Part shown: one piece after another, positions 16,789-61,523 of the stretch | Numbering within the stretch: position 1 is the stretch's first letter | Layout: each line of letters begins with the position of its first letter | Virus record (IMG/VR): IMGVR_UViG_3300028898_000252 | Coordinates: 285,946 to 349,945 of that record | From: a virus | Lineage: Duplodnaviria; Heunggongvirae; Uroviricota; Caudoviricetes | Strand: one strand, 5' to 3' | DNA length: 64,000 nt | Translations under genes and position numbers: made by a program | The notes under the pieces: generated by a model | Database searches by the model: none | Seen by the model: the letters and a program-made list of their open reading frames with translations, nothing else | What the model was told of the DNA's origin: nothing

Positions 16789-16895
16789 TAACTGTTTCTT
16801 TTTTTATATCATACTTTCATCATTCATAAAAATTTCCCAAAAAAATTTTTCCCACTTAATTGTGCAACTTCGGTTTCCTATTCCTCGAAATTTGT

Positions 16896-17114
16896 TTTAT
16901 AGCTATTGGGGGTCCTTTGTAAAAAAAATTTCTCCCCAAAAAAATTTTCTCTCCCTGTAATTTGTGGGTTAAAATGAAACTATAAAAGAGTTTAAAATAG
17001 GTTTTCCCAAAAAAAATTTCCCTCCCTGAAGAACGTGGATTCATAAAAAAGAAAACTTTATAGCTATTGGGGGTCCTTTGTAAAAAAATTTCTCCCCAAA
17101 AAAATTTTTTCTCC
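16896..17114. repeat. About 58-bp direct repeat (16896-16954, 17057-17114) in A/T-tract DNA at the left island edge
   Basis: TTTATAGCTATTGGGGGTCCTTTGTA(7-8)TTTCTCCCCA7TTTT..CTCC twice. Confidence 0.9.
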
Positions 17115-17253
17115 TGGGAGAACGTGGATTAGCACGGTATATGCCAGGAATTACTTCAAAAACCCCCTAAAACCGCCCCCTAGGGGCCTCGTTTTTAACC
17201 CCTTGTTTAAGCCAGGGCCCATTTGCGGGTTGAAACCCCAGGCCCTGTATCCA

Positions 17254-17778
17254 TTATGTGGTTTCGATTTTCTTAAAGTCGTCTCCGAATCGAATGCGCT
17301 CACTTGTAACGCATTCGTCTGAATACTTCGAGAGAATCTTTTCGACGGCATCAATTCGGAGGTTGATTGCCTCGAATGTTTCTGTGTAGCGGTGAACGCG
17401 GATTCTGCGAGCCGTACAGGAATAGTTGTTAATCCCTGAATACTTCAATTCGTTTCTGTAACCAGTCACCGCTACTGGTTTACCAATGGGAGTAAGATGC
17501 TCGACATTTTGCTCGCCGTAACGTTCCCAGAACAAGTTTCGCCAGGAATAGCCTGTGCCGTTATCTCCGCTTCCGTAGAGCAAGTCGACTGCCGACATAA
17601 TGAGGTTGCCGATATCGCTGCTCATATCGTTGCAGTTTTTTGGAATTCGTTTTTCTCTATTCGAGATAGGATAGTCAGCTTCGAACAATGCGTTGTGTTT
17701 CATTGCAATTATATCGAGTGCCAACTCGACGATGGTAGAATCGTCCTCGGGAGTAACCTCCGTGAGTTTGTTTTCCAT
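17254..17778 (-). CDS. Hypothetical protein (island cassette)
   Basis: 174 aa, GGGAG RBS, follows element 17824. Confidence 0.75.
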   Translation of the reverse strand: MENKLTEVTPEDDSTIVELALDIIAMKHNALFEADYPISNREKRIPKNCNDMSSDIGNLIMSAVDLLYGSGDNGTGYSWRNLFWERYGEQNVEHLTPIGKPVAVTGYRNELKYSGINNYSCTARRIRVHRYTETFEAINLRIDAVEKILSKYSDECVTSERIRFGDDFKKIETT

Positions 17779-17865
17779 TTGAAATTGTTTCTCCCTTCTG
17801 TCTATCTCTTAGCACAATCCACGAAGGTTTATTTACCTTGCGAGAAGTATGCCAAGGGAAAGATA

Positions 17866-17900
17866 GAAAAGAAAACGACCCTGAGTGTATCAGGGTGGTT
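17866..17900 (-). terminator. Intrinsic terminator
   Basis: ACCCTGA-TACAC-TCAGGGT then CGTTTTCTTTT. Confidence 0.6.
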
Positions 17901-17928
17901 CTCTCGAAACGATCAAAGCGAGTTTGAT

Positions 17929-18168
17929 TCAGGGTGCCCGCTCGAAAACGGTTTCATCGTTGCGTCGAATTCGGAACTCTGCTGCGCTCAGGTGAGCGAA
18001 AGAACCACCGCGCCCGAATTCGGGGTGGGTTCCGTTGACGAGTTGTTTTGCGTAGCGAGCATCCTGCGCGTCGCGAATGGTTGCAAAATCCAACCATTTG
18101 CCATCGCGCTTGATTTGCGCAACGTCATATTCCTTGAAGGTGTATTCCGCGGGCTGTGTTTTGTGCAT
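17929..18168 (-). CDS. Hypothetical protein (island cassette)
   Basis: 79 aa, GAGG RBS, follows element 18214. Confidence 0.7.
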   Translation of the reverse strand: MHKTQPAEYTFKEYDVAQIKRDGKWLDFATIRDAQDARYAKQLVNGTHPEFGRGGSFAHLSAAEFRIRRNDETVFERAP

Positions 18169-18249
18169 AGTTTGAATTCCTCTCTCTGTGAATATGGTTT
18201 ACCACAATTCTTGGAGGTTTATTTACCTTTCAAGAAGTATGCCAGTCGA

Positions 18250-18684
18250 TCAGTCTTCGCTGATATCCTCCTCTGCCATATCTTTCAGATATGATTCGAA
18301 CGAGGGAGCATTCCAATCACATCCGTATTCGTAGTCGCCTCCGCCCTCGTAATCTTCTCGGTTTTCTCGCCTTTTGATGCGATCGAGACATTCGTTGAGC
18401 GTATACTTGCGAAACGACCTGTTTTTTTCTTCGGAGTAGTTCCGCTCTTCGATTTCCAGCGAACGAAAATCGAGTTCAGACTCTTCGGTTTTGAGCCACA
18501 TTTCTTGCTCGTCTTCGAGGGTTTCGTCGATTCCCTCGGCGATTGCTTGCTTCTCGGTAACACCTTGCGGGTTGCTGAATCGCAAAGTCTTTTCTCTGCG
18601 GCTGTTACCGAGAATGCGGTTAAGGGTAAACCTATCGTCAATATCGAGACGAGCAACAAAACCGCGGCGATGGTTGGTTTTCAT
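18250..18684 (-). CDS. Hypothetical protein starting MKTNHRRGF
   Basis: ATG 18684 with GGAAGG RBS, follows element 18728. Confidence 0.7.
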   Translation of the reverse strand: MKTNHRRGFVARLDIDDRFTLNRILGNSRREKTLRFSNPQGVTEKQAIAEGIDETLEDEQEMWLKTEESELDFRSLEIEERNYSEEKNRSFRKYTLNECLDRIKRRENREDYEGGGDYEYGCDWNAPSFESYLKDMAEEDISED

Positions 18685-18769
18685 TCTGTTGATCCTTCCG
18701 TGGTTATCTCTTACCACGTTTGGCTCTGAATTATTTACCTTGCAGGGACCGTGCCATCGCGGATTCTGA

Positions 18770-18816
18770 AAATAAAAAATGGGCTACTCGGGTGCTGGTT
18801 AGGCACTCGGTAGCCC
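18770..18816 (-). terminator. Intrinsic terminator
   Basis: GGGCTAC-CGAGTGC..GCACCCGA-GTAGCCC then ATTTTTTATTTT. Confidence 0.75.
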
Positions 18817-19003
18817 GTGAGCGGAAACGGAATCTCCGTTTATTTGTGGATTGAAGGGAGCACGTCGCGCGCTCAACCTCGGTTGAAGGGTAGGAAACAA
18901 CAGCAAGAGCGACGAATAGGGTTGCGATTGTTTAGCTCCTCTCTGTGTTTAGGTTTAGCACACCCTTGAAGGAATTATTTTCCTTTCAAGAGATATGCCA
19001 GTG

Positions 19004-19129
19004 TTAGCGGTTGCCGTTTTTGAGGTTGAGGGTTTCGGTTGCCTTTGCGATCATTCCACCAGCGACGAGCGCGGCGAACATCATCACGAAGGCGAAAGCT
19101 GCCCCGTTGGCGAACGTGTTAGCGATCAT
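19004..19129 (-). CDS. 41-aa single-TM peptide (not in ORF track)
   Basis: MIANTFANGAAFAFVMMFAALVAGGMIAKATETLNLKNGNR; AAGGA upstream. Confidence 0.55.
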   Translation of the reverse strand: MIANTFANGAAFAFVMMFAALVAGGMIAKATETLNLKNGNR

Positions 19130-19259
19130 GGGTTTGTGTGGTTTCCTTTCGCTGGCGACGAATCACCGCTGCAACCTCAACGATGCTGTAGGTTGTGCGC
19201 GCGATGGCGAGAATCAACAGAACGATCATAGAGAAATGGTTGTCGATGGAGGGTTCCAT
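19119..19259 (-). CDS. 46-aa hydrophobic peptide (not in ORF track)
   Basis: MEPSIDNHFSMIVLLILAIARTTYSIVEVAAVIRRQRK...; GAGG RBS after element 19300. Confidence 0.6.
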   Translation of the reverse strand: MEPSIDNHFSMIVLLILAIARTTYSIVEVAAVIRRQRKETTQTHDR

Positions 19260-19338
19260 TTGTTTTCCTCTCTGTGAGTATGTCTTAACATACCATTGAA
19301 GGATTTATTTACCTTTCAAGAGGTGTGCCAAGGTTTCG

Positions 19339-19569
19339 TCACTGGTCGGAAGGAAACCAACCCTTCACAACGGCGTTGTGGGCAATTCCAAGACGAAACA
19401 CCTGGGATCGTACTCGAATGCCGCTCGAAGCATTGAACACCTTGATTGAGGCATTCAGGGCGTTTGGGGCGGCATTCAGAGCAGCGGCGAACGCCTCGTG
19501 TTCGGTTGCTCCGAAACCGCTAGCGCTCAGTCCCGTTTGATTACGGGTCCATCGAAATTTACCTTGCAT
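19339..19569 (-). CDS. Hypothetical protein
   Basis: 76 aa; TAATG coupling with upstream ORF. Confidence 0.6.
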   Translation of the reverse strand: MQGKFRWTRNQTGLSASGFGATEHEAFAAALNAAPNALNASIKVFNASSGIRVRSQVFRLGIAHNAVVKGWFPSDQ

Positions 19570-19781
19570 TAGTTCATCACCCTTTCAGGTGCGGTTGAGG
19601 GATCGTGACCGAGGTTGAAAGCGGAGCGAAACAACTGTGCTTGCTCGCGCGTATCCGTGAAATGATCGAACACGGCCCCAGTCACGTCGGAGCGAAAACG
19701 GACCCTCCACATTTCACGCGGCGGGCGTTGGTTGCGAAGAAAAAACGCCTTCAACTTTTCGAGAAGTAACTTGTCGAGCAT
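19569..19781 (-). CDS. Hypothetical protein
   Basis: 70 aa; GGAGG RBS; follows element 19846. Confidence 0.7.
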   Translation of the reverse strand: MLDKLLLEKLKAFFLRNQRPPREMWRVRFRSDVTGAVFDHFTDTREQAQLFRSAFNLGHDPSTAPERVMN

Positions 19782-19928
19782 GACAACCTCCGTTCTGTTT
19801 GACCGTTTCGAATTCCCTTGTGAGTATGTCTTATCACACTCAGTTAAGGTTTATTTACCTTTCACAAACCATGCCAAGCACAGTTTATGAAAACTTTGTT
19901 TTCAAGACCTATGCCAGACTTTTGCCGC

Positions 19929-20312
19929 TCATGCAAACTTGCATGCCGACAAGGTTTTCATCACGGAATACATCCTGTCGATGACCGCGGGGACCTTTTT
20001 GTCGTTGTCGTGGTAAAACATGTTTGCGGCGAGAATAACATTTCTAATCGCCTTGCGCTTGTTCATTCCGACCGCGATATGCACCGCACCGCCACGAATT
20101 GCGATTGAACACCTCCAGCCGTGATCGCGTACGGCATCGAAAACAACATTGACAGGATTGACGCGATTGTTATTCAGCAGGTCGACCAATTTTTCGACCT
20201 TCGCGCCCCCGCTGTAAACCTCGATAACGGCGGCTTCGAGCAAGGTATTGAACCTTTGCTCTCTTGCTTCGATGGCTCGAAAGAATGCCTTGAATGATTC
20301 GAATTGTTCCAT
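19929..20312 (-). CDS. Hypothetical protein
   Basis: Start reassigned to MEQFESF with AAAGGG RBS. Confidence 0.65.
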   Translation of the reverse strand: MEQFESFKAFFRAIEAREQRFNTLLEAAVIEVYSGGAKVEKLVDLLNNNRVNPVNVVFDAVRDHGWRCSIAIRGGAVHIAVGMNKRKAIRNVILAANMFYHDNDKKVPAVIDRMYSVMKTLSACKFA

Positions 20313-20494
20313 TGTGAAACCCTTTCGTTGGAGAATGACAGCCGCAGAAATAGGATTTGCACCTACAGTTTCCTCTGTTTTGCAGAGGTTTTGGCCACGA
20401 TTCGGCACGGGACCTATTCCCGTTCTGCGGTATAGACTTGTTAACACAACCTCGAAGGTTTTATTTACCTTTCAAGAGGTGTGCCAACGAAGGT

Positions 20495-20707
20495 TTAGTC
20501 GTGATACCAAACATCCTCGCCGTGAATGTTTTTCGACGGAAAAACAACCGTATCCGTGTCCTCGTTGTGCTTCGTGACAGCGAACATCACCTTTCGCTGA
20601 GCGTTGCGCAGCACCTTGCGAGCAAAGCGCTTGAAACCATTGTGAAAGTGGCGATGGTGGGAGTCCTCGCTGCGAGCGGTGAATCCTCGACGGTGGTTCG
20701 TTTTCAA
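20495..20707 (-). CDS. Basic peptide starting MKTNHRRGF
   Basis: 70 aa, TTG start, GGGAG RBS, follows element 20750. Confidence 0.65.
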   Translation of the reverse strand: MKTNHRRGFTARSEDSHHRHFHNGFKRFARKVLRNAQRKVMFAVTKHNEDTDTVVFPSKNIHGEDVWYHD

Positions 20708-20844
20708 TTCCGTTCTCCCTTCTGTCTAGGTCTTAACACACTCTATCGTGAATTATTTTCCTTTCACGAATCGTGCCAAGGTTGACCAAGAGGCTGTCTC
20801 GGTGGGTTGAGGCATTCAGAATTAATTTCAAAATCTGTGCCGCG

Positions 20845-20874
20845 AAAATAAAAAAGCCCCGATTCGCTCGGGGC
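20845..20874 (-). terminator. Intrinsic terminator
   Basis: GCCCCGA-GCGAA-TCGGGGC then TTTTTTATTTT. Confidence 0.8.
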
Positions 20875-20912
20875 GTGGCGGGTTTGGTTATGTATCCAAA
20901 CCAATTGGTTTC

Positions 20913-21287
20913 TCAATCCTCGTTTTCCGACGAGAACGCGATCGAACGAATTCCGATCTCATGGTAGTTTTTCCATGAGAATGTCAGCCGCTTCGAATCG
21001 TCATCGCAGCCTTTCAAAACGACGTGCGTGCAATCCCCCGATTGCGTGACGACCGAAGCGACCTCCCACAATTGCGAGCCGTGCGCTCGCTTTCCCTTCA
21101 CTTCGAGAATGTCACCAACCTTGACGCGCGAAAGGATGATCCACACGGGATCGCGTCGCGTTCGGTCCGAAACTTGAAATTTTCGTTCGGTCAAGTCATC
21201 GTAGAGGCGGCGAGCCTTCGTGTTTTCATTCGCCCACGCGCGAAACGAACCGATGATTGCCGAGAGGATATCCTTGTTGTTGCTCAT
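20913..21287 (-). CDS. Hypothetical protein (possible SH3-like C-terminus)
   Basis: 124 aa; VKVGDILEV. Confidence 0.65.
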   Translation of the reverse strand: MSNNKDILSAIIGSFRAWANENTKARRLYDDLTERKFQVSDRTRRDPVWIILSRVKVGDILEVKGKRAHGSQLWEVASVVTQSGDCTHVVLKGCDDDSKRLTFSWKNYHEIGIRSIAFSSENED

Positions 21288-21335
21288 GTTTCTTTTCTCT
21301 TTTCTTTTCGTTGAAGTTGATTGAAGGGTTGGTTT

Positions 21336-21710
21336 TCAGAGAGAGAGGGCGAAAGCGATATCGAGAGCAACAGGGGTTTTGTTTTCCTCCGTTACTCCGT
21401 TGTACTTGATCGCGTGTTCCGCGAGGTTGTAGTGGTCAATCAATTCGACCTCGCAAGGTAGGGGAGTGTTGCAGGCGAGCCGCGTAATCGGAGGCATTTT
21501 TTTGTCTCCGAAAAGTTTTACCAACAAAAACTCTGTTCCGTATTGACCAGTGGAGGCGGAACTTGCGGTCAATTGGTAGACCGCAGAAACCTCTTTGCGG
21601 CCTTTCCGAAATGACAGCAAGAAAAACCTTGCAACCTTGACAAACACCGTAATCGAACAACCGAGTGTTTCGGTGTTGATTCGATCACCAACCTTGAAAA
21701 GATGGTTCAT
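21336..21710 (-). CDS. Hypothetical protein
   Basis: Start reassigned to MNHLFKVGD with AAGGGA RBS. Confidence 0.65.
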   Translation of the reverse strand: MNHLFKVGDRINTETLGCSITVFVKVARFFLLSFRKGRKEVSAVYQLTASSASTGQYGTEFLLVKLFGDKKMPPITRLACNTPLPCEVELIDHYNLAEHAIKYNGVTEENKTPVALDIAFALSL

Positions 21711-21866
21711 TCGTTTTTTCCCTTGTTGCTTGACGAAAACCTTGTCGGCGACTGGCTTATCGACAATAATTTTCTTGGGGTTGCGAGACAGGGTGATTCC
21801 TGGCCAGTTTCTATCTCTTATCACAGCTTTCAGCATTGAATTTTCCTTTCAAGCGCTATGCCAAGA

Positions 21867-22049
21867 TTACCTTTTCCGTTGTTTGATTTTCGAACCAGAG
21901 GGCACCACGAGAAACCATTCGAACCTGTTGACAATTGCATTCCAAACCTTGTATCTCCGAATCACTCTCGTGTAGAGAGCACCTTGACGCAGGGTTTCGA
22001 GGTATGAGTCGAACGGACCCAGGTGGTTTTCTGAATAACAGTCGCCCAT
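21867..22049 (-). CDS. Hypothetical protein
   Basis: 60 aa; AAGGTGA RBS; follows element 22101. Confidence 0.65.
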   Translation of the reverse strand: MGDCYSENHLGPFDSYLETLRQGALYTRVIRRYKVWNAIVNRFEWFLVVPSGSKIKQRKR

Positions 22050-22136
22050 TCGTTCACCTTCCCTTGCTGGCGTGTCTACCTCATATCACGATTGATTCTG
22101 TTTTATTTTCCTTGCAGGGATCATGCCAGCAGTGGA

Positions 22137-22355
22137 CTACTTCGAAACCTCAACTCCAATAATCAAAACCATCGGAGGCTCGCCTACAGAAGTCTCGAAA
22201 CCAGAAACTTTCGTCTGGAAAACTTCATCCTTCTCTGGATTATCCATGAGAGCTTCATTCAGTCGGAGGATCAACCTTTGCGCTTCATCACGCGAAAGGC
22301 CGATAACCAAACGATTTTTGAAAATCTCGTCTGCGGTTTTTTCCCAGTGCGCCAT
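22137..22355 (-). CDS. Hypothetical protein
   Basis: MAHWEK start, AAGGA RBS; follows element 22399. Confidence 0.65.
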   Translation of the reverse strand: MAHWEKTADEIFKNRLVIGLSRDEAQRLILRLNEALMDNPEKDEVFQTKVSGFETSVGEPPMVLIIGVEVSK

Positions 22356-22490
22356 GATCTTTTCCTTTCCGTGGTTATGATCTAACACATTCAGCTCTGA
22401 ATTATTTACCTTGCAGGGATCATGCCAACCACGGGAGATTGAGAATTATTTTCAAATTGCTGCGGCACAAAAAATGCAGGGCCAAAAACG

Positions 22491-22530
22491 ATAAAAGGGC
22501 AACCCGCTTGTTAAAGCGAAGTTGCCCCTT
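22491..22530 (-). terminator. Hairpin/terminator after the tRNA-ncRNA operon
   Basis: GGGCAAC-TTCGCTT..AAGCGG-GTTGCCC then TTTTAT. Confidence 0.65.
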
Positions 22531-22569
22531 TGGGTTTATTTACTTTGCAAACCGTGTGCCAACGTTTAG

Positions 22570-22644
22570 CGTCTCTGATAGGACTTGAACCTATGACCTA
22601 CCGCTTAGAAGGCGGTCGCTACTATCCAACTGAGCTACAGAGAC
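22570..22644 (-). tRNA. tRNA-Arg(UCU)
   Basis: GTCTCTG/CAGAGAC acceptor, TAGCTCAGTTGGATAG D arm, ACCGC-CTTCTAA-GCGGT, GGTTCAAGTCC; CCA not encoded. Confidence 0.92.
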
Positions 22645-22649
22645 AAAGC

Positions 22650-22732
22650 GTCTCGTAACGTTACTGTGCGCCGCTTACACTACGGTTTTGAGGCCGCGGA
22701 GAGTCGAACTCCGTCTGCAACGTTTCCGAGAC
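22650..22732 (-). ncRNA. Circularly permuted tRNA-like RNA (YrlA/Y-RNA-like)
   Basis: Order stem - T arm (CGGAG-TTCGACT-CTCCG) - closed acceptor hairpin - TA - D arm (GTGT-AAGCGGC-GCAC) - stem. Confidence 0.7.
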
Positions 22733-22919
22733 TGAAACAGTCTACAGGAGCACTGTTTCGATGTGCAGTCGATACGCAATCCGTCTCGTAACGTCATCGC
22801 GACGTTGGATTGTCCACTATTGGCAATCAACCTTTCGAGGTTGACTCTCGCTCTCGCCGCGAGAAGGCTAGTGGTGCTGAGAGCATATAATACCGACATA
22901 TCCCCTCGGTTAACGGGTT

Positions 22920-22988
22920 GACTGAGCGGTTTAACTGTTTAACCTAACAGGTTACCCTGTGCAGGATTCGCACCCGCATATCTCAGTC
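22920..22988 (-). ncRNA. Circularly permuted tRNA-like RNA (YrlA/Y-RNA-like)
   Basis: GACTGAG-ATAT-GCGGG TGCGAAT CCTGC-ACAGG GTAA CCTGT-TA-GGTT AAACAGTTA AACC-G-CTCAGTC. Confidence 0.72.
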
Positions 22989-23197
22989 GGTGTGATGGTG
23001 GTTTGTATTGTTTCACTAGCATTCAGTAACCATCGGTACCGAATGCCAGCGGCCACGATTTATTTAACCCAACACCGAGCATTGTGGCTTGTTTGGTATT
23101 GGACCACGGAATTATTCTCCGTGGATTTGCTTTCCTTAAATGGTGGAAAGCACGACAGCGTTTACGACTCCATACTATATGTCGCCTCTAGCATGAA

Positions 23198-23262
23198 TGG
23201 TGCTCTCATATGGACTCGAACCAATGCCTAGCAGCGCGGTTAAGCGCTCTAGGTATGAGAAC
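23198..23262 (-). ncRNA. D-armless tRNA-like RNA with encoded ACCA
   Basis: GTTCTCAT/ATGAGAGC-ACCA, CCTAG-AGCGC-TTAACC-GCGCT-G-CTAGG, TGG-TTCGAGT-CCA. Confidence 0.7.
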
Positions 23263-23387
23263 ATGTTTTATGTTAAGGAATCTATCGTTTTGACGTTGTT
23301 GCCCCGATCGCCTCGCTCTCTCTGTCTACATTCTAGCGCGACCGAGCAAGGTTTATTTACCTTTCAAGTATCGTGCCAGGGAAAAGG

Positions 23388-23516
23388 GTACCGCCGCGGG
23401 AATCGAACCCGCTTTAGACGTTCTAGCCAACGTCTAAATCTCCAAGGTAGAACCCCATAGTTTTATCGGTGCTTGACTAGAGCGCCCGCTATGTTGTCTA
23501 ACTTTAGGTAGCGGTA
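23388..23516 (-). ncRNA. 129-nt tRNA-like RNA (acceptor + T arm + two long hairpins)
   Basis: TACCGCT/GGCGGTA, GCGGG-TTCGATT-CCCGC, TTTAGACGTT/AACGTCTAAA. Confidence 0.65.
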
Positions 23517-23519
23517 TAG

Positions 23520-23602
23520 TGCCAGCAACGGGACTTGAACCCGTATGCCCTTGCGGACGGCGGATTTTGAATCCGCTGCGTATTCCATTCCGCCACGCTG
23601 GC
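23520..23602 (-). tRNA. tRNA-Leu(CAA)
   Basis: GCCAGCG/TGCTGGC-A, GCGGA-TTCAAAA-TCCGC, long variable arm GTCC-GCAA-GGGC, GGTTCAAGTCC. Confidence 0.93.
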
Positions 23603-23949
23603 ATTTGTTCTGCAATCTCGTTTGCAGAGGACGATACCGAGACACATTCTAATATGCGGCTCGATATTAACACGCTGGGATGACACAATGATCATCCGTG
23701 TGGTACAGCTTAGTTTGATATGTGTACCTAGTTCACAGCCCGCGGTTTTCATTGGCTGCAAAACAAGTTGTGCCAGTCACTTAGCCCGTGTTTGCAGGAT
23801 ACGCGCACGCCGACTAGCTTACGCTCGCGTTTCCGACGTATGGGATATATTACCGTTCACTCGCTTTCCTTTTCGTTGCTGCCCGCCCCATGAATCTCTC
23901 TTACCACACCCGAGCAAGGTTTATTTCCCTTGCAAGCGCTATGCCAGGG

Positions 23950-24189
23950 TCAGAGCGCGACCACCGCGAGGGTTTCGCGACCGTTTTCCCACGGGCAGAG
24001 CCACGCTTTCGCGTAGCCGTTGGGTGCTTGCACGATCACGGGATTACGGGGCGACGCCCGTTTCGCGCGGCAAGCGCGGACGATTTTGTCCACCCCAGAA
24101 TCGATAGAATAGTGAGTCACGAATGTAGCTGCCGTTTCGTTGAACTCGAACACCACTGCTTTCGAATCGTTCACTTTTGCATCCTCCAT
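23950..24189 (-). CDS. Hypothetical protein
   Basis: 79 aa between elements 24221 and 23916. Confidence 0.6.
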   Translation of the reverse strand: MEDAKVNDSKAVVFEFNETAATFVTHYSIDSGVDKIVRACRAKRASPRNPVIVQAPNGYAKAWLCPWENGRETLAVVAL

Positions 24190-24254
24190 CCCCCATAATC
24201 TTATGTTAGTACAACCGAGCAGGGTTTATTTACCTTGCACAAGCCATGCCAGAG

Positions 24255-24617
24255 TTAGACCTTGGCGGAATCCTCCGCTCGACGAATAACCCACCATTCG
24301 GTTCCCGCGCCGTCGCGGTCGATTTCACCCACAAGGATGAATTCATTGCTGAGCATATCCATAAACACGCCCTCCCATGCCCCGCGGGTTGTTCGAACGG
24401 ACACACCGAGGATTCTGGAAAACTCAGCCGCAGCCGCAGATTTTCTGACTACGGACGAAAGATTTGTCTTCCGAACGTCGATCTTTCCGCCGCCGCTCAA
24501 TTCGAGCTCGAAACCCTCTTGGGTTTGCTCGATCGCAGTCACGGGAATGAATTCGAGATTCAACCGTTGACGAGCGACGATATTCAAATCGAGACCATCC
24601 GACACAATGCAGTCCAT
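24255..24617 (-). CDS. Hypothetical protein
   Basis: 120 aa, AAGGG RBS, follows element 24669. Confidence 0.7.
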   Translation of the reverse strand: MDCIVSDGLDLNIVARQRLNLEFIPVTAIEQTQEGFELELSGGGKIDVRKTNLSSVVRKSAAAAEFSRILGVSVRTTRGAWEGVFMDMLSNEFILVGEIDRDGAGTEWWVIRRAEDSAKV

Positions 24618-24710
24618 TGTTTGAAACCCTTTCTTCGTTGGTGTGTTCTCTGTATAGCAGACCCTAGCAAGGTTTATTTACCTTGCAATCGGTATGCCAA
24701 GGATGATTAG

Positions 24711-24781
24711 TAGGTCCAGAAGGAATCGAACCTTCGTTAACTGGTTAAAAGCCAGCTACTCTACCATTGAGTTATGGACCC
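24711..24781 (-). tRNA. tRNA-Lys(UUU)
   Basis: GGGTCCA/TGGACCT-A, GCTGG-CTTTTAA-CCAGT, GAAGG-TTCGATT-CCTTC. Confidence 0.93.
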
Positions 24782-25130
24782 TTAGAGCGCCGCTGTTTAC
24801 CAACGATTCCCCGTATGCGGGGCAACCTCGGGACAGCGGGCGGTTTTGCACCATTCTTTTATTCGTTTTAGGCCGAATCACACCCGTTAGGTAGCTATCG
24901 GCCTATCGTTTACGACGATACATCAGCGTTTCCTCTTCGCTATATTATTAGAACCTACGCATGCGCGCGGTAGGCTTATGGGTTCGAGGTAGTGAATGCG
25001 GAATGACCCGCGCCCGTATCGTGTTGGCAGCGTGCGGTTTCGCTCGGTATCCGCTGCTAGTTTTACCGATCGACTAGCAACCGCTCAGTGGAGCGGCTGA
25101 CAAGGTGTGTGTAGCACGACTCGGCAGGGT

Positions 25131-25469
25131 TTATTTACCTTGCACCGTCTGTGCCAGCGGGACGCCGCCCGACCACGGGGCATCGTCGATCATTTCGAAA
25201 ATGGTTTGAATTTCCTCGACTGAAAGAGTGGTGTCGTGATACCACTCCGTCAACCTTCGGTCGAAAGCGTCGGCAAGGTCGCGGGTTTCAGCGAATTCGA
25301 ATTCGACCTCTTCGAACATCGAATTGTAAAACCTCGGAGGTTGCTCGCCATTTGCCGCGCGGTGTTCGATGATCGCCTGCTCGCATTCTCCCACGAATTC
25401 GGCGAGTTGTTCTCGCGAATAACCGCGGAGTTTCAGCGTTTGCAATTCTGAGAGATTCTTCGTCGACAT
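25131..25469 (-). CDS. Hypothetical acidic protein; stop codon supplied by the next element
   Basis: MSTKNL start; ends LAQTVQGK-TAA, the translation of element 25126-25156. Confidence 0.65.
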   Translation of the reverse strand: MSTKNLSELQTLKLRGYSREQLAEFVGECEQAIIEHRAANGEQPPRFYNSMFEEVEFEFAETRDLADAFDRRLTEWYHDTTLSVEEIQTIFEMIDDAPWSGGVPLAQTVQGK

Positions 25470-25546
25470 TTTCTTTCGTTGCTCCTCTCTGTGGGTATGT
25501 CTTACCACACCCTTGAAGGAATTATTTACCTTGCAAGCGGTGTGCC

Positions 25547-25579
25547 AAAAAAAATAGGCTTGGAATAGATCCGAAGCCT
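25547..25579 (-). terminator. Intrinsic terminator
   Basis: AGGCTT..AAGCCT then ATTTTTTTT. Confidence 0.65.
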
Positions 25580-25769
25580 CTCACCATTCGTTATATCGCC
25601 TTCAACCGCAAGTTAACTTAATAACTCGCTGAATGGCCGCACTCCCAGGCATCGCGCTATGGACTAGCCTTATGGTTGCGCTTTGTTATGGCCGCTTGCA
25701 CGGTTTGGTTGAAGCAATGCCGTTATCCAACGGCGGTATTGGCTTGACAGAGAATCCTGTTCTCTGTCA
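25580..25769 (-). ncRNA. Candidate structured ncRNA downstream of tRNA-Ile
   Basis: No minus-strand ORF; long-range pairing TTGCTTCAACC/GGTTGAAGGCGA plus two hairpins. Confidence 0.45.
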
Positions 25770-25846
25770 TGGTAGGCGTAAATGGACTCGAACCATTGAC
25801 CCCACGGTTATAAGCCGTGTGCTCTAACCGACTGAGCTATACGCCC
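25770..25846 (-). tRNA. tRNA-Ile(UAU)
   Basis: GGGCGTA/TACGCCT-ACCA, CACGG-CTTATAA-CCGTG, AATGG-TTCGAGT-CCATT. Confidence 0.9.
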
Positions 25847-26037
25847 AACGAATGCGGCCTCGCCTTATTCAGCGCCCGCGGTGAATGCTAACCAGCTTGT
25901 CACGGCCAGTGCATTATTTTACCTGCTTTCCGTATCGTTGCGGGTTGAGGTTTTGAGGCAACCTTGCTCGTTGCCCCGTGAGTATGTCTTAGCACGACTC
26001 GGCAGGGTTTATTTGCCTTGCACCGTTCGTGCCAGGG

Positions 26038-26346
26038 TTACGCCAGCTTCGACCACGCCAGCGCGAACAAACGCACGGCGAAAGCCAGGGCGAAAACCGC
26101 AGCGCTCACCCTTGCAATCCCCAGCGCGTTTTTTGACGTTCCGTAACCGTACTCGGACGCAAGAAAACTGTTTGTCAGCCTCTCAGCGATCATGGAAACC
26201 ACGAAAAGCGATCCAAACAACAACAGGTGTTGTCCTGCGGAGAGCGAGAGAAACATCCCGAAAAACGTTCCGATCGCGCCCGAAGCGATGGCGAGCACAA
26301 GCAACACAGCCGCCGCGACTGCGGCGAAAACCTTACCAAAGGTCAA
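26038..26346 (-). CDS. Small multi-pass membrane protein
   Basis: About 3 hydrophobic segments; TTG start just after the upstream stop (start uncertain). Confidence 0.6.
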   Translation of the reverse strand: MTFGKVFAAVAAAVLLVLAIASGAIGTFFGMFLSLSAGQHLLLFGSLFVVSMIAERLTNSFLASEYGYGTSKNALGIARVSAAVFALAFAVRLFALAWSKLA

Positions 26347-26348
26347 GG

Positions 26349-26729
26349 TTACGACCTTCGCGAGTGTGACGCGCGCTGGAGAATCGGAAGACCAAGAACA
26401 CCACTCGGTCCAACCTTTGCAAACGCATCGGTTTGCTCGTTGCCGCGTTCGCCAGGGACGAAAAGCGTCACCTCGGCATAGCGGTTGCTGTGCCCCGCGC
26501 AGCACTTGGTTTCACTCGAAACCGTTGCGCGCCAGTCAGAAGCGGAAAAAAACTTTTCCGTTTCCTTTCCCGCAGCGTCGTGTCGGATCACTTCGACCGC
26601 GTAGCGCTCCAATTGGAGCCGTTCGCGGAGTTCATCGGCGTGCATTTCCGCCGCTGTGCGTGTGTCGAGCTCCATTCCTTCATCGAAGGAAACATCGCCA
26701 CTGTCTGAACCATTCACTTCGATCGTCAT
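26349..26729 (-). CDS. Hypothetical protein
   Basis: 126 aa, GGAGGT RBS, follows element 26797. Confidence 0.7.
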   Translation of the reverse strand: MTIEVNGSDSGDVSFDEGMELDTRTAAEMHADELRERLQLERYAVEVIRHDAAGKETEKFFSASDWRATVSSETKCCAGHSNRYAEVTLFVPGERGNEQTDAFAKVGPSGVLGLPILQRASHSRRS

Positions 26730-26831
26730 TGCCTACCTCCATGTAGGGTTGCTAGAGGTTATCTCCAGCAACAACTTTTGAATAACACAACCCTCGAAGG
26801 TTTATTTACCTTGCAGGGATCATGCCATTCT

Positions 26832-26892
26832 TGGAGGGCTTGGGAGAATCAAACTCCCCGCAAAGTTTTTGCTTTGCGAACCATTAAGCCCT
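26832..26892 (-). ncRNA. Minimal tRNA-like RNA (acceptor + T arm + one hairpin, TCCA end)
   Basis: GGGCTT/AAGCCC-TCCA, GGGAG-TTTGATT-CTCCC, GCAAAG-CAAAAA-CTTTGC. Confidence 0.55.
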
Positions 26893-26897
26893 TGCGG

Positions 26898-27380
26898 TCA
26901 CTCCGCTAGTGCCGCCTGAATCTCGGAAAGTTTCTTCTCGAAGGTGAAACGAGTTTCGAAACGCTCGCACACTTCGCGCAATTCCTCGAAACCACTCGCG
27001 ATTTGTTCGAGCGAATCGGGGTCAACCTCGTTGGGCGCGGTGCGGTCGACCAGCTTCGCATACTCGGTCAACTCGATTCCGAATTGAGCGCCGCGCCAAT
27101 CTCCGTTAGCGTCGCGGTAGTTGAGCACACGCTTTTCGAGCGCGTACATGATCGCGCCGTCCACATCACCCGCCTTTTGCGCGGTGCGCAGCTCGACCAG
27201 CTTCCGATACGACGCGCGCAGGTTTTCCACACCCGCGACGATCATATCAAACTTCTCGTCGACATTCGCGTTTCGAAACGCCGCCAAGTTTTCGAGCGGC
27301 TTGTGCTTGCACGCGTCGAACGAGCGCGTGGCTTCGAGAAGAGCCGCCTTATCTGCAACAACAACAACGTTCGTTCCCAT
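26898..27380 (-). CDS. Hypothetical helical protein
   Basis: MGTNVV start; GC3-rich codons; follows element 27467. Confidence 0.7.
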   Translation of the reverse strand: MGTNVVVVADKAALLEATRSFDACKHKPLENLAAFRNANVDEKFDMIVAGVENLRASYRKLVELRTAQKAGDVDGAIMYALEKRVLNYRDANGDWRGAQFGIELTEYAKLVDRTAPNEVDPDSLEQIASGFEELREVCERFETRFTFEKKLSEIQAALAE

Positions 27381-27612
27381 TTTTTTCTTTTGCTCCAATG
27401 TTTGAAAAACCGTTCACTTGCTGTGTGAGCACCGTTGCTCACACTCTCTACTTAGCACAACTCGACAAGGTTTATTTACCTTGCAGGGTTCATGCCAAGC
27501 GTGGCACTTCCGCCGAGGGTTGCACTCGGCATAGCTATTGCTTGTTAGCTTTAGCTATCGTGTCCTGGTGACACCGAAAGTGTTTTGTTCTGCCCCTTTC
27601 GGGGCGAGGGTT

Positions 27613-28236
27613 TCAACCCTCGGCGGTTTCGTCGTCGGTCGCAGCGTCGAGCGCTTCGAGCGCGGGCGAATTGCTCAGGTCGGTTGCAGCCGCGCCAGCA
27701 AACCGCGACGGAGGCGCGGAAAGCGCGACGACACGCGCCGTGCGCGCAGGCTTCGCGGGCTTGGGAGCCTCGGGAGCCTTGGGTTTGATTCCGAGCATCG
27801 CAGCGACCGAGGTTTGCGGCGCGTTGGGATTGATTCGCGCGATTCCCGCGCACTCCATTGCAGCGCGGAAGGTTTCGATCAGTGACAGCGCCTCGATCGC
27901 GCAACCCGCGCTATCGCGCGAGTGGAGCACGAAAACGTTGTCGCGACCGATGACCTCACTGCCGTACACGACCTCGCCGCGAACGATGCGAAGCAACAGC
28001 GTCGAGCCCGCCGTGTCCGAGTTTGGCCCGCCGCGCGCGGCGCGCACGCCTTCGAGCAGCGCGAGCGCCGAGCCGCCTTCGTCATCGGTCAAGCGGAACA
28101 TCACGGGCTCTTGTGGCTCGATCCACAGATCAGACTTCGACGCGTCGCCGCCCTCGCCGCACTGCTCGCGAACGTGCGCAACGAGCGCCGCGAGAACCAT
28201 TCCAGCGACAACCGAACGAACAGAATTCTTGCTCAT
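27613..28236 (-). CDS. Hypothetical protein with A/P-rich disordered C-terminus
   Basis: MSKNSV start; follows element 28332. Confidence 0.7.
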   Translation of the reverse strand: MSKNSVRSVVAGMVLAALVAHVREQCGEGGDASKSDLWIEPQEPVMFRLTDDEGGSALALLEGVRAARGGPNSDTAGSTLLLRIVRGEVVYGSEVIGRDNVFVLHSRDSAGCAIEALSLIETFRAAMECAGIARINPNAPQTSVAAMLGIKPKAPEAPKPAKPARTARVVALSAPPSRFAGAAATDLSNSPALEALDAATDDETAEG

Positions 28237-28331
28237 GTTTTTTTCTCTCTTTTCTTTCGTTTTGTGAACTCGCGAGCACCGCAACCGTGCGGTGCATCAT
28301 CTCTTGTGAATCTCTCTTAGCACGACTCGGC

Positions 28332-28362
28332 AAGGTTTATTTACCTTGCACCGTCTGTGCCA
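28332..28362 (-). promoter_or_regulatory. Representative sigma54-type -24/-12 promoter
   Basis: TGGCACAGACGGTGCAAGGTAAATAAACCTT; GG-N10-GC; upstream of the ORF starting at 28236. Confidence 0.75.
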
Positions 28363-28532
28363 ACCTAACAACCATCGAAACTCACGTTCGCAGGTTAGGT
28401 GGGATGGTACGAATGTTGTTTGTTCGTGCCGTCCCGTCTACTCTGCAACCGATACCCTGTCATGTGCTCTGTCTAGCACACTCTCGGAAGGTTTATTTAC
28501 CTTTCAAGTATCGTGCCAGGACAGTTTCAGGC

Positions 28533-29054
28533 TCAGTCGTCATCGGCAGCATCGAAAAACTTGCCGATCGCGAGGAATTCACCGCGAGTGCAAGCGGCGT
28601 GCCACTCAGGATTCGAGCCCGTCCCGTTTGGAATCGGGCTGAAATTCAATTTCTGTACCATCGTGCGGCGTGCTTTGAATTCGGCGAATCCTGGGAATTC
28701 AACCGAAGCAAGCACCGCGCCGTTGTTTTTCGACCAGTCGTAAAAGTACCGTTGTTTTCCGACGGCACCGTCGTCGGCCAGTGGGGCAACAACGAGACAG
28801 CTTGTTCCTCGCGCCCCGCGTGAGGAATGATTCCCCAGCAAAATGAATCGCCGCTTGTTGATTCGCACAGTTGAATACTTTGGCGCTGCTTTTGCAGCAA
28901 GCACCGTATCCCGCTGAAACTCGCTGAATTCATCGTAGTCAGGCGAATCCCGCTTGATTCGCCCCTGGCGAGCACCTTCGCCTGCGGTACAGTCAAGGTC
29001 GAGCCTTTCAGGCTCGACAACATTGTCATTGTCATTGTCGTTTTCGTTTGCCAC
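28533..29054 (-). CDS. Hypothetical protein
   Basis: GTG start with GAGGAG RBS; NDNDND microrepeat; follows element 29098. Confidence 0.7.
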   Translation of the reverse strand: MANENDNDNDNVVEPERLDLDCTAGEGARQGRIKRDSPDYDEFSEFQRDTVLAAKAAPKYSTVRINKRRFILLGNHSSRGARGTSCLVVAPLADDGAVGKQRYFYDWSKNNGAVLASVEFPGFAEFKARRTMVQKLNFSPIPNGTGSNPEWHAACTRGEFLAIGKFFDAADDD

Positions 29055-29296
29055 TCGCTGTGCTCCTCTCTGTGAATCTCTCTTAGCACGACCGACCAAG
29101 GTTTATTTACCTTGCAGGGTTTGTGCCAACAACCTTGGTCGTTGGAGTTTCGAGCGAAACGCGGCGATCGTCCGTCCCGCCCTGTGTTCTCTGTCTAGCA
29201 CAACCCAAGGTGCTTTATTTACCTTGCAAGCATCATACCAGGGTTGGGCGTTTGGCGCGGTGCGAGCCTCTATCGACCGCGCGTACACGCGTGCGT

Positions 29297-29370
29297 AGCA
29301 TAAACCATGCCAGGTAAGACTACCTAAAAAAACCGTTGGCATGATACTTGCAAGTGGCATGGTTTATGCC
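29297..29370. promoter_or_regulatory. Divergent cluster of three GG-N10-GC boxes at the right island edge
   Basis: Minus 29297-29312; plus 29337-29352 and 29355-29370; perfect 15-bp inverted repeat 29298-29312/29355-29369. Confidence 0.75.
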
Positions 29371-29485
29371 TTCGCGGGGCAACCCTCAACCGTTACCATA
29401 TATGGCAGTATGAAACACCTAAACATTTAGTGAAATGAAATTTAATGAAACTAGGTATGAATTTTATTTGTACTAAGGTTTAGAG

Positions 29486-29959
29486 TTAAACTTTGTATTT
29501 TATAAAAAGAGTTTCGAGTTTTGTTTTAAGTTCTGGATAATGATAAAGGAAACTTTTATTCTTTTTTGGATCAAGGAGTCTTTCGTAAATTTGTTTGTAT
29601 GAGTTTCTCTCAAGCCACGAGAGATAAGCTGAAATAAACTTATCATCTTCGAGATAGTCAAACAAAGTGACTTCAACCATTTCAAAAAATGTTTCTTTGT
29701 CGAGTTTAATTGTTTTGGAGCATATTAGAGCATAATATGCACAAAGTTTTTTGATAAGAAACTCATCATTTTCAAAATCAAGAACTTGTGGTTTTTGGGC
29801 TTTGGGAGAGGAAGTATTCCAGTTTTGGGAAACAATTATTGTCGATTGTGATTCATGTGCGGTAATTGTGTTATAAGAAGGGTCAAACAAAATGGCACGG
29901 TAATCACAACCTGTAAATGTTTTAACAAAGGTTTTGAGTTCTTTGTTTTCAAGTTTCAT
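29486..29959 (-). CDS. Hypothetical protein
   Basis: MKLENK start with AAGGAGG RBS. Confidence 0.75.
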   Translation of the reverse strand: MKLENKELKTFVKTFTGCDYRAILFDPSYNTITAHESQSTIIVSQNWNTSSPKAQKPQVLDFENDEFLIKKLCAYYALICSKTIKLDKETFFEMVEVTLFDYLEDDKFISAYLSWLERNSYKQIYERLLDPKKNKSFLYHYPELKTKLETLFIKYKV

Positions 29960-30121
29960 TGTTTTGTTGCCTCCTTTTTTTGATTGTTTTGTTTCAACCC
30001 AAACTCTTATTGTTTTGGGTTGATTTATCTTAGCCGCAAACCTTATAAAAGGTTTGGGATTTAAGCTTTGAATTAATATGATAAACATTTAGTATTTTGA
30101 CCCTCCCCTCCCCTTAAAAGA

Positions 30122-31300
30122 TTAATTCTTTTTAGAGTTAAGCTGCGAAAGGTTTTCTTCAAGGGCTTGGTCAATAACTTGCAAAGTATCTCTAAACTGT
30201 TGAGTAAAACTATCAGTAAGGGCTTTGAATTCTTTCTTGAGATTCACATTATCGTTTTCGGCGGAATACCATTCGATTCTGAATCTATCAATAACTTCTG
30301 AATACTGGGAAAGGAATTCAAGTCCTTCGCAGATTGATTTATCAAACACTTCAATTGGATAGTTTCTCAGGTCGAGGCCGTTTGCCTTGAACAAGTTTTC
30401 GTAGGCAAACTTTGCAAGAAACTTTCCAATGAAGCCGAATTGATCTGTAACCTCTTCTTCGTTGTTTATTTCAATAGAAGGAATATAAACAGTCCATTTA
30501 TCAAGTGGAGAAATAAGAGTTTTGTTATCGTCTCTTGCCGATGATCCTGCGTCGGCGAATCGCATAATAACAAATGGTCCATATTGACCATCCCCAGAAT
30601 AAACTTGATAACCAACCATTCCTTTCGGAAAAGGATTCTTTCCTCGCTTTGCCGCGACAGAATAGTTGATTCCAAGGTTCATGTTTCGATAATCAGACCT
30701 TCTTTTCGATTCTTTCCATTCTGCCTTTTTAATATTGTTTTCAATTTCGATTTGCTGAAGGTGTTTGTTGTACAGATTCATAATCTCTTCATCGGCATCA
30801 ACTTCAACAAAAAGACCATCCTTTTTAAAGGATTTTCCTTTGTAGAAAACAGGAGGCAAATAAACATTACTTGTTTGAATGTGTTCAGCTGCAAACTTTT
30901 TTTCTTCTTTAAGATAGTAGGTGATAACAAGACTGTCATTATTCAAACCATCATAGTAATATGAATTCATTTCAACATTCACAATTGGATTTGATGGGTC
31001 GATAATATATTTCTCTGTGACTGAAATCCAGCCATATTTGTTGACGATTGGTTCTTGTGCCTGAAACATTTCAAGATACTTTTTTTGGATTGCCTCGAAT
31101 TCTTCTTTCTCGTGCAAGTAATACACAGGGGAATTTGAACATGTTTCATAGTTTTTCAATTCCTCTTCGGTCATTTCGTTTCTGCGGCGAACTCTCTTTT
31201 CGACAAGTTCGCTGTAATTCAGTTTTTTTCTCAATTCCTCGTGAGCTTTGTATGCAGGGTTTTCATCCGTTCGGAACACACTCAACGACTTTGCGACCAT
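30122..31300 (-). CDS. Hypothetical protein under the outlying element 31407
   Basis: 392 aa, GGGAG RBS. Confidence 0.8.
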   Translation of the reverse strand: MVAKSLSVFRTDENPAYKAHEELRKKLNYSELVEKRVRRRNEMTEEELKNYETCSNSPVYYLHEKEEFEAIQKKYLEMFQAQEPIVNKYGWISVTEKYIIDPSNPIVNVEMNSYYYDGLNNDSLVITYYLKEEKKFAAEHIQTSNVYLPPVFYKGKSFKKDGLFVEVDADEEIMNLYNKHLQQIEIENNIKKAEWKESKRRSDYRNMNLGINYSVAAKRGKNPFPKGMVGYQVYSGDGQYGPFVIMRFADAGSSARDDNKTLISPLDKWTVYIPSIEINNEEEVTDQFGFIGKFLAKFAYENLFKANGLDLRNYPIEVFDKSICEGLEFLSQYSEVIDRFRIEWYSAENDNVNLKKEFKALTDSFTQQFRDTLQVIDQALEENLSQLNSKKN

Positions 31301-31572
31301 GTTTTTATTTCTCCCGAGTGAATTGGTTTTTGTTGCCCCGATTATCGCTGCGGTGAGCCTCTATCACTCGCGCGATCACGAGCACACGCATAGCACAATC
31401 CCCCGCGGATTATTTACCTTGCAACGACCGTGCCAGCTACCGAGGGCAAGAGGATTCGACCCCGCAAAGTTTGCAGGTTTCGCGAGCCTTTCAGTGTAAC
31501 GGTTACCCGAAACAAACGATCAAACAAGAAAAACAAAAGTGTAATGAAATTAAATCATATTAATTTCAATAG

Positions 31573-61019: not shown

Positions 61020-61523
61020 CTATATGAATCCTCTGTAAGAACCATAATCTTCATATCCATACTCTTCGTGGTATTCTGTAAGAGAATCATCTCTCGTATA
61101 TTGTTCCATACCAAGAAGTTTCAAAACAAGATGATTTGGAGCAATCATTCTTTTTGCCTCAAGTTCTGTGTACCTAGCTGGAATTCCAAACTTAAGTTCC
61201 GCAAACTTTCCAATCGCAGACGAACGAGAAATCCCCGCCATACAATTCACAACAAGGATAAACTCTTGAGAGTTGTTTATATGATGATTAAAAATAAAGT
61301 TCTTTACTTTTCTTGCAAGATTTTTTGTAAATGCTTTCCGACTTGTTTTGTCTGTGATATCATCAAAAAACAAAGGCAAAGTATGTTTGTTACCACCAGA
61401 AACAAGTCGTTTCTTTTGATCGTTTGCAATGGTAATCCAAGCAACTTTTTCCCCAAGCTTTTTTAACTGAGGAACTATTACCTTTGCAGTTTCTCGATCT
61501 GTCACAATGATTTGCTTTACCAT
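61020..61523 (-). CDS. Protein-tyrosine/dual-specificity phosphatase-like protein
   Basis: CX5R loop VNCMAGISRS, upstream FDD, downstream PN. Confidence 0.85.
   Translation of the reverse strand: MVKQIIVTDRETAKVIVPQLKKLGEKVAWITIANDQKKRLVSGGNKHTLPLFFDDITDKTSRKAFTKNLARKVKNFIFNHHINNSQEFILVVNCMAGISRSSAIGKFAELKFGIPARYTELEAKRMIAPNHLVLKLLGMEQYTRDDSLTEYHEEYGYEDYGSYRGFI

Follow-up and report, generated by a model that had tools for sequence, protein, structure and literature searches.

A GC-rich array of small-gene cassettes headed by a sigma54-type repeated element in an AT-rich phage genome

Promoter-early stem-loop (PeSL) cassettes have been described in the hyperplastic regions of T4-type phages (Arbiol et al., 2010, PMC2839356; Comeau et al., 2014, PMC4122927). 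Here, a cassette array was analyzed in a window of 64,000 nucleotides (the whole stretch of DNA examined; bases 285,946-349,945 of the 390,884-bp IMG/VR virus record IMGVR_UViG_3300028898_000252), where a GC-rich island holds co-oriented units headed by a repeated composite element with a sigma54-type -24/-12 core. As in PeSL regions, a short repeated promoter and stem-loop motif precedes small, mostly unknown genes in a variable region, and the motif is where insertions, deletions and replacements that distinguish related phages have their ends (here in L049, L048 and L054, which are short, low-coverage contigs). The PeSL promoter is sigma70-like, whereas the island core (TGGCAY-N5-NTGC) is of the -24/-12 type and reads weakly as sigma70-like. 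The PeSL stem-loop is a separate terminator, whereas the arms of the island hairpin straddle the -12 element and the start region. The island is also one contiguous 12-kb block, 19 GC points above the genome, with tRNAs or other RNAs in many units. The original prediction, made from the sequence of the window, had likened these repeats to PeSL elements; the likeness held for repeat-headed cassettes and recombination and failed for the promoter, which is of sigma54 type; the hairpin overlaps the promoter and does not appear to form a separate terminator.

A single sigma54-like phage promoter is on record, in Pseudomonas phage YuA (PMC10914365). The island element shares with it and with other sigma54-dependent promoters the TGGCAC-N5-TTGC register and the invariant GG and TG; unlike them, it is present in 26 copies in one phage, shows no evident enhancer or activator, has A in place of the -12 C in a quarter of copies and is strongly conserved downstream. 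The array also resembles integron cassette arrays in that small, exchangeable cassettes of one orientation lie between copies of a repeated recombination site. In integrons, the cassettes lack promoters and an integrase moves them at attC sites; in the island, each cassette carries a promoter, exchange has the look of homologous recombination, and no integrase was recognized among 20 island proteins searched against Pfam. A looser likeness is to the leading regions of conjugative plasmids, which show codon adaptation (bioRxiv 10.1101/2025.04.03.647016): in both, the composition and codons of a block that is presumed to be the first expressed in a naive cell differ from those of the rest of the element. 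Those regions belong to plasmids with single-stranded entry, and their effect is far smaller than that in the island. No earlier report of such a compositional island in a phage was found in a literature search of incomplete coverage.

Borders, composition and codon usage of the island

The GC content of the phage record was 32.9% and its CheckV completeness 100%; it carried 21 tRNA genes and a terminal repeat of 141 bp. Change points in cumulative GC deviation were located after positions 17,110 (rise) and 29,392 (fall), and both switches were complete in <100 nt (0.30 to 0.49 on the left and 0.49 to 0.27 on the right in 100-nt bins). The island averaged 51.3% GC (local maxima of 70% at 27.6-28.2 kb) and its 5-kb flanks 31.9% and 33.7%, in agreement with the predicted switches at about 17.15 and 29.4 kb between roughly 50-60% and 30% GC. 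Across 758 12-kb windows of the whole genome, the highest value outside the island was 35.8%. GC at third codon positions (GC3) of open reading frames (ORFs) was 0.56 in the island and 0.24 ± 0.06 elsewhere. Curated island genes had GC1/GC2/GC3 of 0.57/0.42/0.62, compared with 0.42/0.32/0.23 for the rest of the genome. The CCC-A7-T5-CCC motif of the repeats at the left edge (Table 1) occurred at no other site in the 391-kb genome; these repeats could be terminators, bent DNA or an origin-like site. Intergenic DNA outside the island yielded no further over-represented 9-mer.

Codon usage differed sharply between the island and the rest of the genome (codons per 1000: ATA 0.8 vs 24.1, TTA 1.3 vs 31.6, CTA 0.8 vs 9.0, AGA 6.7 vs 20.3, AAA 24 vs 83), island genes favoring CGC, CTC, GCG, TCG and ATC. 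Amino acid composition differed as well (Ala 10.5 vs 4.6%, Arg 8.1 vs 3.5%, Lys 5.4 vs 9.8%). Codons read by phage tRNAs were enriched among those commoner outside the island (one-sided p = 0.023), and a phage tRNA was present for 6 of the 8 codons with the largest island-versus-rest difference. GC3 of 0.53-0.68 was kept in relatives in which synonymous divergence (dS) was saturated, compared with 0.26-0.27 in the flank gene; the composition is therefore maintained and is not the fading trace of a recent transfer.

The composite element and its exchange among relatives

Twenty-six copies of the composite element were found in the window, all on the minus strand, of which 25 lay at 17,826-29,240 and one at 31,407-31,435. 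A genome-wide search at ≤3 mismatches returned 21 matches, all at the island or 31.4-kb sites, with no further copies elsewhere in the 391-kb genome, and a reversed control pattern gave 0 matches. The element (TGGCAY-N5-NTG(C/A)AAGG-N-AAATAA) consists of a sigma54-type core followed at fixed distance by a GTGnTA box (box 2), usually with a purine-rich ribosome-binding (Shine-Dalgarno) site downstream, for a total length of ~60 nt. A minus-strand consensus was derived from 41 unique copies (window plus relatives) and read T0 G1 G2 C3 A4 Y5 R6, N, T12 G13 (C/A), AAGG, N, AAATAA. T0, G1, G2, A4, T12 and G13 were invariant or nearly so (GG in 41/41, TG in 40-41/41, C3 in 39/41); position 14, the -12 C position, was C in 31/41 and A in 10/41; and the GTGnTA box began exactly 27 nt past T12 in all 41 copies. 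The first part matches the sigma54 consensus TGGCAC-N5-TTGC in exact register. In most copies, the variable spacer and the -12 element pair with variable bases after the AT-rich block to form a hairpin, which folded at z < -1.5 in 22 of the 41 copies with arm sequences that differ among copies (covarying). It overlaps the promoter and lacks a T run; separate terminator-like hairpins were present in some units only.

Start-to-start spacing of the elements was 112-1,649 nt. Minus-strand, repeat-delimited units of about 0.1-1.1 kb had been predicted; strand and delimitation held, and the range was slightly wider, since a second gene or RNAs accompany the gene in some units. Of 25 bare sigma54-type cores in the genome, 20 fell in the island zone. 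A bare core outside the window, TGGCATGGAACTTGCT, lies at genome position 368651 (minus strand, ~82.7 kb right of the window start) in a gap upstream of a 1235-aa (amino acid) gene, with a GC-rich leader and without the AAGG-N-AAATAA block; by its sequence, it may be a further promoter of the sigma54-type class.

In a metagenome scan, the complete composite element was found on eight short contigs, which come from at least four assemblies. L049, from a different assembly, aligned with the window at 88.8% identity in one piece from 30,199 to 28,487, a stretch that takes in the AT-rich flank gene, the border and part of the island; the right junction is therefore no artifact of assembly. In both sequences GC3 was 0.26-0.27 in the flank gene and 0.57-0.59 in the first island gene. 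The L049 alignment resumed at 26,827, with 1,691 bp (three cassettes) missing relative to the window; at the join, the element of L049 is identical to the 28,518 copy as far as the core and, from there on, to the 26,827 copy. In L048, the 72-aa cassette (299 bp) was missing, again with the crossover in the element core, and an extra gene cassette stood precisely at the gene-less element of the window, with AAACCC microhomology at the boundary. In L054, the 70-aa gene of unit 20 (Table 1) lay behind another element subtype (a swapped promoter/leader) with a novel gene upstream; both genes of this unit stand behind a 23946-type element in that contig. Homologues of three window cassettes (35-57% identical) were present in a different order in L047, and 704 bp of L089 matched at 99.7% identity with divergent DNA on both sides. 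Novel cassettes in relatives were likewise GC-rich. Among the 26 window elements, left and right halves assorted independently (r = 0.06). These losses, gains and reorderings support the proposal that the repeats double as points of cassette exchange, and cassette order is not invariant among relatives. Alignment of the contigs strongly indicates the element core as the site at which related phages lose, gain and re-pair cassettes.

Wider searches were performed with the element and with neighboring proteins. IMG/VR returned 0 matches to a strict element pattern and no relatives when searched with flank proteins (single or aligned) or with an alignment of the 160-aa protein family (unit 5, Table 1). 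True relatives were recovered by way of the Mre11-Rad50 protein (G002-G004, 64-78% aa identity, all fragments); none showed a GC island, and the collinearity of G002 and G003 stopped near coordinate 268 kb of the phage's own genome, short of the island. GenBank phages gave no DNA match, and P0010, a more distant relative in the 160-aa family, gave no tblastn match to them. Protein look-ups suggested that the flank gene and two island genes have homologues together on one 12,442-bp ENA contig. A scan of GTDB genomes for the element returned 39 single matches in diverse bacteria, none with box 2 and hence no clue to the host. Two other candidates were set aside: the 1416-aa neighbor gene, tried as a route to relatives, matched through its repeat domain only and led to a record without the element (G001, locus L012), and a recurrent metagenome match, GGGATATGGCATCAGCTATGCAAGGTAAATAA, proved to be the end of a conserved ORF (...WDMASAMQGK*) and was scored as a chance match.

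Units of the island and neighboring features

The island was divided into 25 units, numbered from the right edge leftwards (Table 1). It holds 21 credible protein genes (41-207 aa) under purifying selection, with ratios of nonsynonymous to synonymous divergence (dN/dS) of 0.08-0.38 against relatives. None of the 20 proteins searched against Pfam gave a match, the PHROG search gave only one, which was marginal, a protein atlas look-up of cassette proteins returned nothing, and no paralogues of island proteins were found elsewhere in the phage genome. Homologues of the 173-aa protein of unit 2 formed clusters at 57-100% identity (dN/dS 0.08 vs L049). The 160-aa protein of unit 5 belongs to a small family (35-91% identity); an AlphaFold2 (AF2) model (predicted local distance difference test, pLDDT, 94.6) predicts a helical fold, and a fold search with the model found only generic helical bundles (Foldseek E ≥ 0.15; VIA Z ≤ 10.2). 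The ORF of unit 17 probably starts at an internal ATG near 21710. Unit 14, judged by its sequence and the AAACCC microhomology, is read as the scar of a cassette retained in L048. The otherwise unrelated proteins encoded at 20495-20707 and 18250-18684 share an N-terminal MKTNHRRGF with differing synonymous codons, pointing to a signal in common or to an ancient recombination event where the genes begin.

Non-coding DNA (GC 0.50) makes up about 30% of the island and includes several significantly structured segments, some of them tRNA-like (z -2.4 to -4.7). Four tRNA genes were called by two programs, ARAGORN and Rfam RF00005 (54-74 bits): Arg-UCU, Leu-CAA, Lys-UUU and Ile-UAU, which read AGA, UUG, AAA and AUA. 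Some of the compact structured RNAs at 22918-22990, 23195-23265 and 23379-23518 have T-arm-like GGTTCGA loops; ARAGORN calls none of them a tRNA, and one gave a weak Rfam YrlA match (E 0.12). Elsewhere in the genome, ARAGORN called a tRNA with anticodon CUA (61455-61527, plus strand), a would-be amber suppressor; read with the standard code, the ORFs of the window are intact. The wider gene content includes many intein-split genes, a chaperonin, an Mre11-Rad50 fusion and one sigma70-family protein, and LAGLIDADG inteins split the chaperonin, PhoH-like, glycosyltransferase and GDP-mannose dehydratase genes (loci L021-L024). Within the 1416-aa gene, five 69-nt tandem repeats at 32050-32449 of the window encode a 23-aa repeat domain, the sole part of the protein matched in other phages (Celeribacter P12053L, Agrobacterium Atu_ph07).

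Table 1. Positions in the window of the island, its edges, its units and the adjoining features.
Feature	Position	Strand	Element	Content
GC-rich island	17111-29392	minus		12,282 bp, 51.3% GC, 25 co-oriented units
AT-rich flank gene	29486-29962	minus		159 aa; GC3 0.26; adjoins island in L049 too; homologues 69-91% identical
Right edge hairpin	29298-29369			15-bp perfect stem, arms 29298-29312 and 29355-29369
Bare sigma54-type core at right edge	29337-29354	plus		Points away from first island promoter
Unit 1	29129-29240	minus	29212-29240	No ORF; 112 nt
Unit 2	28519-29128	minus	29100-29128	173-aa gene 28533-29054
Unit 3	28363-28518	minus	28490-28518	No ORF; 116-nt RNA, fold z -2.0
Unit 4	27498-28362	minus	28334-28362	207-aa gene 27613-28236, GC up to 70%
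Unit 5	26828-27497	minus	27469-27497	160-aa gene 26898-27380
Unit 6	26035-26827	minus	26799-26827	126-aa gene 26349-26729; 102-aa membrane-like gene 26038-26346
Unit 7	25548-26034	minus	26006-26034	tRNA-Ile(UAU) 25770-25846; ~220 nt non-coding 25548-25769
Unit 8	25157-25547	minus	25519-25547	112-aa gene 25131-25469, end overlapping next element
Unit 9	24700-25156	minus	25128-25156	Structured non-coding RNA 24782-24931 (z -3.8); tRNA-Lys(UUU) 24710-24781
Unit 10	24252-24699	minus	24671-24699	120-aa gene 24255-24617
Unit 11	23947-24251	minus	24223-24251	74-aa gene 23950-24174
Unit 12	23379-23946	minus	23918-23946	Structured RNA 23603-23752 (z -3.1); tRNA-Leu(CAA) 23519-23602
Unit 12 tRNA-like RNA	23379-23518	minus		z -2.4
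Unit 13	22562-23378	minus	23350-23378	~680 nt mostly non-coding; tRNA-Arg(UCU) 22569-22644
Unit 13 tRNA-like RNAs	23195-23265; 22918-22990	minus		z -4.7; z -3.9
Unit 13 doubtful ORF	22675-22899	minus		Frameshifted in L048
Unit 14	22428-22561	minus	22533-22561, without box 2	Element leads directly into terminator-like hairpin
Unit 15	22129-22427	minus	22399-22427	72-aa gene 22137-22355; missing from L048, present in L074
Unit 16	21864-22128	minus	22100-22128	60-aa gene 21867-22049
Unit 17	20779-21863	minus	21835-21863 (weakest)	ORF 21336-21836; 124-aa gene 20913-21287; terminator-like hairpin 20856-20874
Unit 18	20487-20778	minus	20750-20778	70-aa gene 20495-20707
Unit 19	19877-20486	minus	20458-20486	127-aa gene 19929-20312
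Unit 20	19331-19876	minus	19848-19876	70-aa gene 19569-19781; 76-aa gene 19339-19569
Unit 21	19001-19330	minus	19302-19330	Two small membrane-like genes, 19119-19259 and 19004-19129
Unit 22	18757-19000	minus	18972-19000	No ORF
Unit 23	18245-18756	minus	18728-18756	Acidic 144-aa gene 18250-18684
Unit 24	17855-18244	minus	18216-18244	79-aa gene 17929-18168
Unit 25	17151-17854	minus	17826-17854	174-aa gene 17254-17778; terminator-like hairpins 17164-17245
Left edge	16836-17150		17128-17150 (degenerate)	TGGCAT fused directly to GTGCTAA, then AT-rich repeats
Four AT-rich direct repeats	16836-17114			~85 nt each, CCC-A7-T5-CCC core; between convergent genes
Outlying unit	30122-31435	minus	31407-31435 (full)	GC-rich leader ~100 nt; AT-rich 392-aa gene 30122-31300, GC3 0.36

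Origin, expression and role of the array

The island looks like a real, fast-changing accessory module with codons unlike those of the rest of the genome. We consider it highly probable that it is a native cassette array that works in a PeSL-like way with a sigma54-type element. The combined reading that we favor, in which a native hyperplastic array is at once an early takeover module, transcribed by host sigma54 polymerase and written in host-like codons, was assigned a probability of roughly 0.55. Each of the ~25 units is headed by the ~60-nt element, and together they would express small proteins without known relatives, four tRNAs and structured tRNA-like RNAs. Phage proteins gave no match to the Pfam RpoB model or to a T7-type RNA polymerase model, the latter of which missed all control genomes too; since no phage RNA polymerase was detected, host core polymerase would read the island promoters, most simply with host sigma54, and a host activator may act on them from solution. 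Start sites are predicted in AAATAAAC, ~11-13 nt past the -12 GC. The array would serve early in host takeover; its host-like codons would be independent of phage tRNAs, and it would supply tRNAs for AUA, AGA and AAA, codons needed by the AT-rich remainder of the genome. Selection for expression in a naive cell, continual exchange with a pool of GC-richer cassettes, or the two together may keep the GC high.

Several observations weigh against this combined reading. No sigma54 or enhancer-binding AAA+ (PF00158) domain was found in phage proteins. No conserved sequence was present upstream of about -30 in the aligned copies, so no enhancer is evident. The sigma54 -12 C is A in 10 of the 41 copies, and sigma54 alone does not account for the invariant block past -12 or for the fixed box 2. 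TTA, which shows the largest codon difference, has no phage tRNA. Joins at repeats in short, low-coverage metagenome contigs could also reflect assembly collapse; the extra L048 cassette, with window-like DNA on both sides, is the sole case immune to this objection.

The remaining difficulty is that the GC shift is regional. It is also present in non-coding island DNA (0.50) and at first and second codon positions (0.57/0.42 vs 0.42/0.32), so codon selection cannot be the whole cause. It is possible, if less than probable, that architecture and shuffling are as described and that the high GC plays no part in translation timing but is a side effect, arising from steady import of cassettes from GC-richer phages or hosts together with GC-biased repair in a recombination hot spot and the needs of structured RNA. 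Besides the shift in all three codon positions, amino acid composition and non-coding DNA, such an origin would fit the GC-rich novel cassettes of relatives and the ~30% of the island that is non-coding, much of which is structured. The near-total avoidance of ATA, TTA and CTA, with AUA, AGA and AAA tRNAs in the array, fits a functional split instead, and no donor genome was found (the 20 island proteins searched had no Pfam match, and P0010 no tblastn match among GenBank phages). The original prediction had proposed that GC-rich codons let the first genes be translated by an unmodified GC-rich host. The codon contrast and the four tRNAs agree with this proposal, whereas a shift that reaches all codon positions and the non-coding 30% weighs against it; translation first in a GC-rich host, with an early timing that we infer, is plausible but unproven.

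The identity of the factor that reads the element bears on timing as well. We consider it unlikely that a phage-specified factor (the sigma70-family protein or an unrecognized one) reads it, with a convergent likeness to sigma54 and with the island as a middle or late module. The phage does encode one sigma70-family protein, conservation extends far beyond a sigma54 site (AAGG-N-AAATAA, fixed box 2), seven copies score 9-10 of 12 when read as TTGGCA-16-AATAAT, and neither enhancer nor activator was found. Under the sigma70 reading, however, the invariant TG at positions 12-13 becomes part of the spacer and most -10-like hexamers are without the crucial final T, whereas the sigma54 consensus is matched in exact register at 12 specified positions over 41 copies.

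A single recent horizontal gain of a foreign 12-kb element (mobile element, satellite or host DNA) whose composition has not yet drifted appears very improbable. The sharp borders and the 19-point GC gap would be expected from such a gain. The 20 searched proteins had no Pfam match, however, and hence no integrase or transposase was recognized; scans within each edge zone gave no att-like repeat beyond the AT-rich copies and hairpins, the edges not having been compared with each other; the same element heads an AT-rich gene outside the island; and relatives as distant as 52-57% protein identity, with dS saturated, still have the junction and the high GC3. An assembly chimera, in which a GC-rich contig was joined into an AT-rich phage contig, can be all but dismissed: the left junction lacks independent support and the evidence comes from assembled sequence rather than reads, but the right junction is reproduced at 88.8% identity in another assembly, homologues of the flank gene and two island genes appear together on the 12,442-bp ENA contig, a degenerate copy of the element lies exactly at the left edge, and the outlying element at 31.4 kb does head an AT-rich gene, as had been argued against a simple chimera.

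With the native array as the preferred reading, promoter-mediated cassette shuffling, known from T4-type phages, would now be seen in an unrelated giant phage with another promoter class and a compositional island. Host takeover and anti-defense are candidate roles for the ~21 small proteins and the tRNA-like RNAs. A more speculative picture, which we offer tentatively, is of an AT-rich giant phage with two codon sets: a host-like, GC-rich takeover module would be fired by ~25 enhancer-less sigma54-type promoters, with the hairpin possibly pre-opening the DNA; it would need no phage tRNAs and would deliver the tRNAs and tRNA-like RNAs that decode the AT-rich rest; and the promoter would be the universal splice point for cassette trade. 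An enhancer-less array of sigma54-type promoters would challenge the rule that sigma54 always depends on an upstream-bound activator and would offer a compact system for activator-independent opening. If the timing idea is true, base composition and codon choice would form a built-in program for ordering expression, with tRNA supply as the switch, and this would apply to a phage whose codon usage is mismatched to that of its host.

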